Shown piece by piece: positions 4,817 through 6,829 of a DNA stretch of 27,946 nucleotides. Source of the stretch: a virus; UHGV virus genome UHGV-0178950, one strand, 5' to 3'. The notes under the pieces are model-generated. The model was given only the letters and a program-made list of their open reading frames with translations. It searched no databases and was not told where the DNA came from. Position 1 is the first letter of the stretch. Every line of letters starts with the position of its first letter. The translations under genes and the position numbers were made by a program.

Positions 4817-6829
4817 ATGCTTAAATTTCGCCGCGATCTTAACGGTTACGGTGGAGTTATTAACGAAGGGCATAACGATCAATACGAATTTGAAATTGCT
4901 TTCTCCAGTGAACAGCCGTATCAGCGCCAATTCTGGGATGAGCAAAATCAAGAGATGGTGGTACTAGATGAAATTCTGGTACATACACCGGAAGCGGTTG
5001 ATCTGTCTCGTCTGAATAATAACGCTCCGTTGCTGTTCAATCATAATTTCGATAATCATATTGGTGTCGTTTGTAACGCTCGAATCGATGCGGATAACGT
5101 AGGTCGTGCTCTGGTTAAATTCTCTAAGCATGGCACTTTGGCTAATGATATTCGCAATAAAGTCATTGAAGGTACGATGGAAAAAATTTCTGTCGGTTAT
5201 GACATTAAAGAATATCACATCGACTACACCAAAGGACAATTGATTGTTACTAAGTGGGCACCCTATGAACTCTCATTTGTCACCGTTCCCGCAGACGATA
5301 CGGTCGGTTTAAATCGCTCTCTAAATACTATCACAGTTAATTTGGAGGCTAAACGCGATATGACTAAAGAACAAATCGAAGAAATCAAAGAAGAACAAGA
5401 AGCCGCTCAGGTTGAAGAAACTCCGGTAGAAGAAAATAAAGAACCGGAAGTTGAAGAAACTCAAGAGCGCCAAGTTGAAGAGAATAAAGAAGATGAAAAT
5501 CTCGAAGACGGAAAAGACGCTGAACATCCTGAAAGTGTTGATGATGATAGTTCAACTGTTCGGGAAGCAGAAGAAGTAAAAGAAGAACGTGAAGCCGCTC
5601 CGATTGAAGAAGAAAAAATCGAAGAAGTGGCTGAACGTTCCGAAGAAGACGAATTAGAAATTCGCGAAATTGCACGCGAGTTAAATATTAACGAAGACGA
5701 TGAAGAATTTAAACACGCATTGGCAAATAAAGAAATTACGCCGGAAGCATTCCGCACTAAGGCACTAAATAACATTACCAATGCTCAACGTAATAACGAA
5801 CAACAAATTAAGGACTCTAAAATGGAAAAAATCTTTGACCTGAACAACGTAATTCGCTCTCTGGTAGATGGTGCTGCTCTGGGCGCTCATGAAGCTGAAT
5901 ATTCCGCAATGGCTGCTACTGCAACTATGCAGCGTGGTCGTGCTGCTCGTGGTGGCTCTGTATTCGTTCCGGCTGCTGCTCTGCGTGCTGCTGCTGATGG
6001 TAACACCAAAGCTACTCTGACTGATATCACCGACGAAAAACTGCTGACTGAATCCTACATCGAAATGCTGATGCCTCAGTCCGTTCTGGGTCGTCTGGGT
6101 GTGACCGTCCTGTCTGGTCTGAATAGCCCGATTGCAGTACCAAAAATGACCGCTTCCAGCGTTGATGCTTTCGGTTTCGTTGATGAAAACGGTGCTGCAC
6201 CGGAAAGCAAAGCTGAATTTGCAAACGTGAAAATGGCTCCTAAGACGTTTGCTGGTGGGAACCCGATCAGCAGAGCTAGCATCAAGCAAGTTCCCGGCAT
6301 CGCTACCCTGATCACTGATCACATTAACAAATCTGTTCGGATCAAACTGGAACAACTGATTCTGTCTGATAAAGAAAATGCTCGTGGTCCGGCTGGTCTG
6401 GTTAAGCAACTGGTAGACGGTGGTCGCGTTACTAAGAAAGCCGCTTTTAGCTACAAAGACTTCCTGAAAGAAATTGCAGCACTGACCGACGCTGGCGTTC
6501 CGGCACAGTCCATCAAGTTTGCAATGAGCGGTGCAACTGCTGCTGAACTGGAATCTACCCTGAAAGATAACGGCGTTTCCGGTTATATCATCGAAAACGG
6601 CAAACTGGCTGGTTACGAAGTAGTTACTTCTGGTGTTATCCCGGCAGACCACATCGTTCTGGGCGATTTCAGCGGCATTATCGTTGGGGAATGGGGAGGT
6701 CTTGAGCTAGATCTGGACGATTCAACGTACCGTGCCCAGTCTGCGATCGTGCCTCGTGTATGGCTGGATTTGGACTACGTTGTAGCACAGCCGGAAGCTC
6801 TGAAAGTTCTTCACATCTCCGCTGAATGA
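4817..6829 (+). CDS. Prohead protease (HK97 S78-type) - acidic scaffold - major capsid protein fusion
   Basis: N-terminal domain has His76 (LLFNHNFDNHIG) and Ser125 (KISVGYD) spaced 49 residues apart as in HK97-type prohead proteases, then ELSFVTVPADDT; residues about 182-330 are Glu-rich low complexity; C-terminal about 340 aa has capsid-like composition and extreme optimal codon usage. Confidence 0.7.
   Translation: MLKFRRDLNGYGGVINEGHNDQYEFEIAFSSEQPYQRQFWDEQNQEMVVLDEILVHTPEAVDLSRLNNNAPLLFNHNFDNHIGVVCNARIDADNVGRALVKFSKHGTLANDIRNKVIEGTMEKISVGYDIKEYHIDYTKGQLIVTKWAPYELSFVTVPADDTVGLNRSLNTITVNLEAKRDMTKEQIEEIKEEQEAAQVEETPVEENKEPEVEETQERQVEENKEDENLEDGKDAEHPESVDDDSSTVREAEEVKEEREAAPIEEEKIEEVAERSEEDELEIREIARELNINEDDEEFKHALANKEITPEAFRTKALNNITNAQRNNEQQIKDSKMEKIFDLNNVIRSLVDGAALGAHEAEYSAMAATATMQRGRAARGGSVFVPAAALRAAADGNTKATLTDITDEKLLTESYIEMLMPQSVLGRLGVTVLSGLNSPIAVPKMTASSVDAFGFVDENGAAPESKAEFANVKMAPKTFAGGNPISRASIKQVPGIATLITDHINKSVRIKLEQLILSDKENARGPAGLVKQLVDGGRVTKKAAFSYKDFLKEIAALTDAGVPAQSIKFAMSGATAAELESTLKDNGVSGYIIENGKLAGYEVVTSGVIPADHIVLGDFSGIIVGEWGGLELDLDDSTYRAQSAIVPRVWLDLDYVVAQPEALKVLHISAE
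5360..6829 (+). CDS. Candidate internally initiated scaffold-capsid product, in frame within the protease-capsid ORF
   Basis: GGAGG at 5344-5348 followed by an in-frame ATG at 5360, exactly at the boundary between the protease domain and the Glu-rich segment (MTKEQIEEIKEE...). Confidence 0.35.
   Translation: MTKEQIEEIKEEQEAAQVEETPVEENKEPEVEETQERQVEENKEDENLEDGKDAEHPESVDDDSSTVREAEEVKEEREAAPIEEEKIEEVAERSEEDELEIREIARELNINEDDEEFKHALANKEITPEAFRTKALNNITNAQRNNEQQIKDSKMEKIFDLNNVIRSLVDGAALGAHEAEYSAMAATATMQRGRAARGGSVFVPAAALRAAADGNTKATLTDITDEKLLTESYIEMLMPQSVLGRLGVTVLSGLNSPIAVPKMTASSVDAFGFVDENGAAPESKAEFANVKMAPKTFAGGNPISRASIKQVPGIATLITDHINKSVRIKLEQLILSDKENARGPAGLVKQLVDGGRVTKKAAFSYKDFLKEIAALTDAGVPAQSIKFAMSGATAAELESTLKDNGVSGYIIENGKLAGYEVVTSGVIPADHIVLGDFSGIIVGEWGGLELDLDDSTYRAQSAIVPRVWLDLDYVVAQPEALKVLHISAE

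Follow-up and report, generated by a model that had tools for sequence, protein, structure and literature searches.

The fusion gene and its domains

The DNA analyzed here is a 27,946-nucleotide stretch of the virus genome UHGV-0178950 (the window), which is a portion of an Escherichia coli prophage. At positions 4817–6829 of its + strand lies a single open reading frame (ORF), the 670-residue, 73.8-kDa product of which combines a protease, an acidic linker, a helical scaffold-like region and a major capsid protein of the HK97 fold. An earlier reading of this DNA, here called the original prediction, had also placed protease, scaffold and capsid in one ORF, and Pfam, PHROG 617, AlphaFold and fold matches to the capsids of roseophage R4C and HK97 all agreed with that assignment. 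In Pfam, the Peptidase_S78 profile (PF04586) matched residues 40–162 with 41.5 bits (cutoff 21) and the Phage_capsid profile (PF05065) matched residues 412–666 with 85.8 bits (cutoff 24.2), while PHROG 617 matched the whole length of the protein (residues 21–665, E = 5e-93). An AlphaFold model based on a 147-sequence alignment had a mean predicted local distance difference test score (pLDDT) of 84.

The prohead serine protease domain (residues 21–169, 4877–5323, + strand) was modeled as a beta-rich fold with pLDDT above 90. Conservation and comparison with HK97 identified its catalytic residues as H76 (cat, 5042–5044) and S125 (tct, 5189–5191), together with an invariant E151 (5267–5269), all on the + strand. 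H76 and S125 are 49 residues apart, exactly as are H65 and S114 of HK97 gp4 when read from the HK97 genome, and BLASTP aligned the serine motif EKISVGY with EGMSVGF of HK97. The His/Ser pair that had been predicted at HK97-protease spacing was thus found as described, and across the 147 homologues (24–88% identity) H76, S125 and E151 were the sole invariant columns. By these sequence criteria, the N-terminal domain is an HK97-type S78 serine protease of predicted activity.

The protease is followed by a linker with a pLDDT of about 40 (residues 170–269, 5324–5623, + strand), predicted to be disordered, and then by a helical, delta-like region resembling a scaffold (residues 270–395, 5624–6001, + strand) with pLDDT values of 85–97 and predicted helices at residues 276–288, 296–303, 309–339, 342–351, 357–372 and 386–393. 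Asp and Glu make up 36% of residues 182–335, in keeping with the Glu-rich scaffold-like segment of the original prediction, and F340, within the helical region, is kept in 78 of 83 relatives. The pLDDT drops at residues 391–410, whereafter the HK97 fold begins. Foldseek gave template modeling scores of 0.72 to the mature capsid chain of R4C (PDB 8gta, 268 residues) and of 0.66–0.74 to HK97 heads; its matches were filled by capsids, and the fold support thus covers the capsid part. Residues 12–263 of the 8gta chain aligned with residues 412–663 (E = 7e-28), which together with the pLDDT dip would put the mature N-terminus near residue 401, giving a predicted mature major capsid protein of about residues 401–670 (6017–6826, + strand; 28.6 kDa). 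In R4C itself the gene product has 629 residues and the virion chain is its C-terminal 268 residues, the N-terminal 361 residues being gone.

Codon usage and candidate internal starts

Codon usage along the ORF was analyzed by classifying every codon as optimal or non-optimal for E. coli, leaving out Met and Trp, and also Glu and Lys, since GAA and AAA prevail in the linker and would inflate its score. The optimal fraction was 0.48 in the protease (residues 21–169), 0.53 in the disordered linker (170–269), 0.53 in the first part of the helical region (270–335), 0.89 in its remaining helices (336–395) and 0.75 in the capsid part (396–670). The rise within the helical region was significant (Fisher p = 1e-4); the other genes of the window had optimal fractions of 0.36–0.68, with only Met and Trp excluded. 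A single change-point fit placed the step before codon 333, with the optimal fraction going from 0.50 to 0.78 and a log-likelihood gain of 22.9 that was equalled by none of 500 permutations, and the 2-log-likelihood support interval covered codons 327–347 (5795–5857, + strand).

An amino-acid-stratified Cochran–Mantel–Haenszel test, which strips out composition effects, gave the same result, with chi2 27.6 and p = 1.5e-7 for codons 1–335 against 336–670 and p = 0.005 for codons 270–335 against 336–400. The contrast is illustrated by CTG, used for 5 of 20 Leu in codons 1–335 versus 27 of 31 in codons 336–670, and by ATC, used for 6 of 22 versus 16 of 22 Ile. The sharp codon-usage shift of the original prediction is therefore real, but it does not lie at 5360, where that prediction had proposed an internal start: codons 1–181 and 182–335 showed no difference in the same test (p = 0.41). 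A capsid domain written "almost entirely" in optimal codons was a mild overstatement, the fraction being 0.75–0.89 and some stretches reaching at least 0.9.

Both flanks of the step, which lies within the helical region, are structured and would be removed in the predicted maturation. If the ORF gave a single product, selection on elongation speed would be equal along its length, so that the step suggests unequal ribosome flux. The two-gene arrangement of HK97 served as a control, and there the same rise in optimal codons was seen at the gene boundary, from 0.55 in gp4 to 0.71 in the delta part of gp5.

Within the support interval lies the candidate internal start that we favor (5809–5824, + strand), consisting of TAAGGA at 5809–5814, a 7-nt spacer and ATG 5822, the codon of M336. 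Its spacing is near-optimal, and it resembles the tAAGG-type sites of the other genes of the phage. Initiation here would give a product of 335 residues and 35.2 kDa with the predicted N-terminal peptide MEKIFDLNNVIR.

The other candidate (5344–5362, + strand) is the GGAGG with in-frame ATG that the original prediction had pointed to at the protease/linker boundary, and it is indeed present, with GGAGG at 5344–5348, ATG 5360 (M182) and a rather long spacer of 11 nt; its product would have 489 residues and 53.2 kDa. The GGAGG, with a predicted duplex of −9.3 kcal/mol with the anti-Shine–Dalgarno (anti-SD) sequence, needs a GAG codon that is rare in this gene (7 of 79 Glu codons). The RNA around both 5360 and 5822 is weakly folded, among the least structured 15–17% of positions; however, much of the linker is equally unstructured and local RNA folding therefore does not discriminate between sites. 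Since the codon step is absent at 5360 and coincides with the better-spaced ATG 5822, we rank 5360 as a secondary start at best in this window, which may add a 53-kDa form.

Start sites among relatives and a model of expression

The fusion gene was found in 52 of 5,426 complete E. coli genomes, at 88–93% nucleotide identity, and its 670-residue product is 100% identical to E. coli proteins labeled "phage major capsid protein" (P0001). No match at the DNA level was found among sequenced phage isolates; the closest of these by protein was Escherichia phage DCP80 at 45%, with no sequenced isolate above that identity. For comparison, 80 related IMG/VR loci, collected with a 13-sequence alignment as query, were aligned together with annotated phages and reduced by dereplication to 44 lineages of less than 90% identity. 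All three modules lie in one uninterrupted ORF beside the portal gene in the 83 related loci, as they do in the window. An ATG was taken as having a Shine–Dalgarno (SD) sequence when the anti-SD duplex ahead of it reached at least −4 kcal/mol in strength.

With this criterion, 18 of the 44 lineages had an in-frame SD and ATG no more than 15 codons ahead of the F340 motif, with none in either of the other frames. In the E. coli relatives that were aligned, AAGGA and ATG were kept in 12 of 12 although the residues encoded just upstream vary (IKDSK versus NKEQI), and these 12 include the two genomes that carry another protease allele. Among the 44 lineages, 14 have a Met at positions −6 to 0 relative to F340, and all 14 have an in-frame AAG-GA 7–13 nt upstream. 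The Lys of this motif is always encoded by AAG, a codon making up 15–34% of the Lys codons of those ORFs; multiplied together, these fractions give 10^-9.2, a combined probability that is overstated because the lineages are phylogenetically related and therefore not independent. Low-GC relatives without an equivalent of Met336 encode the corresponding Lys as AAA.

A second site recurs at the protease/linker boundary, where SD and ATG were found in frame in 13 of the 44 lineages versus 6 (frame +1) and 0 in the other frames. DCP80 has TAAGGA and ATG at this boundary (M180) and a CTC at the position of M336. Its codon step is at codons 188–240, just past M180, and its helices 270–335 are optimized (0.79). 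The DCP80-like lineages carry the boundary AAGGA and ATG in three reading phases (AAG-GAA, A-AGG-AAA and AAA-GGA), which indicates that the nucleotide motif, and not the protein, is conserved. Three lineages resemble DCP80 in having both SD+ATG and codon step at the boundary (L024, L027 and L031), whereas in L032, L030 and the family of the window both are at the F340 site. Roseophage R4C has a boundary GGAGG with ATG (duplex free energy −9.5), and Salmonella phage PT1 (Jilinvirus) has GAGGG with ATG at the boundary and a rise in codon optimality after M217. It should be noted that in low-GC relatives from IMG/VR whose host is unknown, the E. coli-type change point is informative only if the gain is large, and loci with a weak signal (L039, L050, L054, L059 and others) were disregarded in this comparison.

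Taken together, we consider it somewhat more probable than its negation that the gene is expressed by nested in-frame initiation, giving co-terminal products, where 5822 would be the principal internal start and a minority of full-length protein would carry the protease. A minority of ribosomes would start at 4817 and make the 74-kDa protease–linker–scaffold–capsid polyprotein, the capsid domain of which would co-assemble into the shell and thereby carry the tethered S78 protease inside. Most ribosomes would start at ATG 5822 and produce the 35-kDa M336–670 protein, having a helical propeptide of roughly 65 residues in front of the HK97-fold capsid protein, and ATG 5360 may contribute a 53-kDa linker–scaffold–capsid form. 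After assembly, the protease would strip everything N-terminal of about residue 400 to leave a capsid protein of about 270 residues. No sigma-70-like promoter was found within 4600–7100, other promoter types remaining possible, and with no such site inside the gene, internal translation would be a simpler route than an internal transcript.

The proposal that an internal start yields an excess over the protease fusion thus gains comparative support in principle, through the boundary SD and start of distant relatives, but 5360 is not where the step lies; the nested-start principle of the original prediction is probably right and its site wrong, and the sequence data make it more likely that the excess product is the 35-kDa M336–670 protein rather than a 53-kDa scaffold–capsid protein. 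For the fusion genes as a family we propose, more tentatively and at a little under even likelihood, that they are nested genes in which the internal start sets the protease-to-capsid ratio, and that this start has moved between the boundary and the scaffold-like site, shifting the onset of codon optimization with it.

Several observations weigh against this interpretation, apart from the relatedness of the lineages mentioned above. M336 is not placed at a boundary between predicted domains: it is four residues from where the confident helix 309–339 ends and falls midway through the helical region 276–393, so that the 35-kDa product would be without half of the apparent scaffold, and the conserved helices 270–335 would be confined to the minority product. 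The Lys-Asp/Glu pair behind AAGGA is conserved as protein even in high-GC relatives without the Met, and the choice between AAG and AAA is therefore the sole nucleotide-level evidence in that motif. A host-independent codon test, using log-likelihood ratios based on the protease and capsid domains of each locus, was too noisy to bear out the pattern outside enterobacterial hosts; the region after F340 was always capsid-like, with the linker near zero and scattered switch points. Two lineages break the pairing of SD and step, L029 having its step at the boundary yet only a weak SD there (−3.9) and L026 having SD and ATG at the boundary yet its step at F340+3. The gene is moreover a recombination mosaic, with synonymous divergence (dS) varying in patches from 0.02 to 0.8 among the E. 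coli relatives, and part of the compositional contrast could come from that history. Throughout the fusion family, finally, the case for nested products is built from sequence statistics.

That ATG 5360 is instead the main internal start, with the 53-kDa acidic-linker/scaffold–capsid protein made in excess in the manner of lambda C/Nu3, seems unlikely to us, although the site has clear merits. It has the strongest anti-SD pairing beside any in-frame ATG of the ORF, in weakly structured RNA, and its GGAGG depends on the rare GAG codon mentioned above. It also lies exactly at a structural boundary, with the protease ending near residue 169 and disorder starting at 170, so that its product would include the entire helical scaffold region. 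Boundary SD and start recur in DCP80, L024–L031, R4C, PT1 and the two E. coli genomes L002 and L003, and Met is enriched 10–19 residues past the protease end in the 147 homologues (0.045 versus 0.02). However, codon usage is unchanged at 5360, staying at 0.53 through residues 182–335 and jumping to 0.89 only at 336–395, and the 11-nt spacer is long for a GGAGG. M182 is gone in L002 and L003, which have GGAG with GTG two codons downstream instead, and a boundary Met is wholly absent in L032, L039, L041, L045 and L059. The boundary region is also purine-rich, and the out-of-frame SD+ATG pairs counted there show that such motifs arise outside the reading frame as well.

We hold it to be equally improbable that there is one product only, every subunit being made as the 74-kDa polyprotein with its own protease and trimming itself once assembled, with incidental SD+ATG motifs and a codon step that stems from gene-fusion history, module recombination or selection for translation accuracy in the virion-retained part. 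Such a view would accord with the single coding sequence (CDS) annotated in every genome, with the lack of internal starts in the available portions of the published fusion descriptions, with the gene's mosaic character (a swap of the protease module at around 5369, and dS that is patchy), with the protein-level conservation of Lys-Asp/Glu ahead of the F340 motif and with the position of M336 within a predicted helix. The step, however, stays put in alleles at a dS of 0.4–0.8 and in lineages at 30–45% identity, which makes an ancestral relic unlikely since it would have decayed, and between lineages it shifts jointly with SD and ATG. In low-GC lineages the AAG/AAA choice is perfectly correlated with a downstream ATG, and the mosaic joint at about 5369 differs from the position of the step. 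Accuracy selection, in turn, fails to explain why optimization peaks in helices 336–395, which would be removed upon maturation just as helices 270–335 would. We accordingly prefer the reading of nested initiation in which 5822 is the main internal start.

Some further observations were made on the relatives. L002 (CDS 2440–4458) and L003 (CDS 2440–4455) have a strongly divergent protease module in the same gene, which meets the shared sequence precisely where protease and linker abut (about 5369 in the window), and they have an additional 340-residue ORF between the portal and capsid genes; as judged from these sequences, the protease is behaving as an exchangeable module. Residues 173–255 (about 5333–5580) had a dS of 0.00–0.06 and a nonsynonymous divergence of 0.02–0.05 among the E. 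coli relatives, with dS mostly 0.1–0.8 elsewhere, and this could reflect a recent sweep or a nucleotide-level constraint. Segment-wise synonymous divergence was tried as a test for silent-site selection but was uninformative because of the mosaic dS. A DCP80-like protein of 297 residues (P0147) has protease, linker and first scaffold helices and ends near the equivalent of residue 310; as a possible split version of the gene it was not used as evidence, truncation being equally possible without DNA context.

The DCP80 record (L001, PQ671644.1) is 141 kb long and labeled Straboviridae/Gaprivervirus, yet its positions 1–16000 form a lambda-like terminase–portal–fusion head module, all the proteins of which are annotated as hypothetical; the record may be mislabeled or a chimeric assembly. 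Mobile elements were found in relatives of the prophage (NZ_OW848980.1, H33; L005 at 5888–6868; L003 at 6323–7360): an IS903B lies inside the capsid gene of one genome and an ISKpn26 just downstream of it in another, and a third relative has a GIY-YIG nuclease gene inserted ahead of its tail-fiber gene.

Surroundings of the gene and relation to known systems

The fusion gene stands in a lambda-like gene order, with the large terminase gene at 778–2682, a small ORF at 2755–3249, the portal gene at 3260–4771 directly upstream, and then the fusion gene. The full-length product has its own SD-like sequence, AAGGTGA at 4806–4812 (+ strand), 4 nt before ATG 4817; as their ribosome-binding site (RBS), most of the window's other genes have tAAGGGGtaat-ATG. 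A GC-rich hairpin, GGGGGCGCAATGCCCCC, is located at 4779–4797, past the portal gene and ahead of the fusion gene. Downstream of the latter, a strong intrinsic-terminator-like hairpin with a T-run (6964–6995, + strand) sits within the 190-nt gap from the capsid gene stop (6829) to the next ORF (7021), and the HK97 annotation has putative terminators at the places corresponding to both hairpins. Further downstream, the ORF at 12299–12775 (+ strand, 158 residues) has an optimal-codon fraction of 0.68, the second-highest of the window, and a canonical tAAGGGGtaatt RBS; its product is probably another abundant virion protein, e.g. the major tail subunit.

Fusion of protease, scaffold and capsid protein is in itself a large, already described and widespread family. 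An exhaustive search of representative sequences gave 6,926 matches, 519 of them at E ≤ 1e-30, the best 150 being nearly all of 560–700 residues. The fusion thus reaches hundreds of clusters in that search, in proteobacterial and, according to the literature, actinobacterial phages. Single-gene fusions of this kind have been described in Microbacterium cluster EE and other small actinophages (PMC7302621), in Pseudomonas phage MD8 (gp5, 693 residues; PMC8508860) and in Rhodobacter phages of the RcC cluster (PMC8601537). The gene of the window shares the identical domain order, in a single ORF immediately downstream of the portal gene, with these and the other PHROG 617-type fusions, which also include R4C gp6 (629 residues) and those of Jilinvirus (ECO1230-10, ep3 and PT1) and Xanthomonas Foxunavirus. 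In the portions of these descriptions that were available, internal initiation is neither proposed nor tested, and a literature search of incomplete coverage found no report of it in a protease–capsid fusion, so the nested-start reading of the fusions, and its movement between lineages, appears to be undescribed so far. Other papers were set aside: a preprint on the anti-phage system CBASS and a paper on the Shiga toxin (Stx) phage Sp5 concern other head modules, those on AchV4 and on industrial E. coli phages concern separate genes, and a Paracoccus paper deals with a different fusion, of ClpP plus a gpT-like protein.

What internal initiation would mean is best seen from the stoichiometry of the head. 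A T=7 head has 415 capsid subunits and needs far fewer proteases, and a fusion poses the puzzle of how the procapsid could house 415 tethered proteases with their linkers and afterwards be rid of them. Internal initiation, if true, would resolve this puzzle without an additional gene, nested CDSs would be the better annotation for the fusion genes, and the masses to be expected in prohead proteomics would become 74, 53, 35 and 29 kDa. A step in codon usage within an ORF may also serve as a cheap genomic signature of hidden nested phage genes.

Nested in-frame protease/scaffold genes are well known from lambda C/Nu3, phage Mu I/Z and the UL26/UL26.5 genes of herpesvirus (HSV); the lambda protease is of a family other than S78. 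In the archaeal virus HFTV1, the nested in-frame start of gp17/gp17.5 was demonstrated by Ribo-seq and harringtonine. In all four systems, an internal start past the protease gives a co-terminal shorter protein in excess, and the protein proposed here from sequence would resemble them in having the protease tethered to the assembly unit. They differ from the window in that the nested product is a scaffold, with the capsid protein encoded by a separate gene, whereas the C-terminal part of the window ORF is the capsid protein itself, so that an internal start would set the protease-to-capsid ratio directly; if true, the capsid protein itself would thereby come under the principle known from lambda C/Nu3 and UL26/UL26.5. 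A further difference is that the favored start of the window lies within, instead of ahead of, the scaffold-like region.

Another close system is HK97 gp4/gp5, which shares the S78 protease and an HK97-fold capsid protein preceded by a removable helical propeptide, and the proposed M336–670 product (335 residues) resembles gp5 (385 residues). In HK97, however, a stop codon and an intergenic RBS separate the two genes for the protease and the delta–capsid protein, while in the window a single ORF has its protease and capsid parts spaced by 100 disordered acidic residues plus additional helices, and the propeptide on the short product would be about 65 residues long, compared with 102 in HK97.

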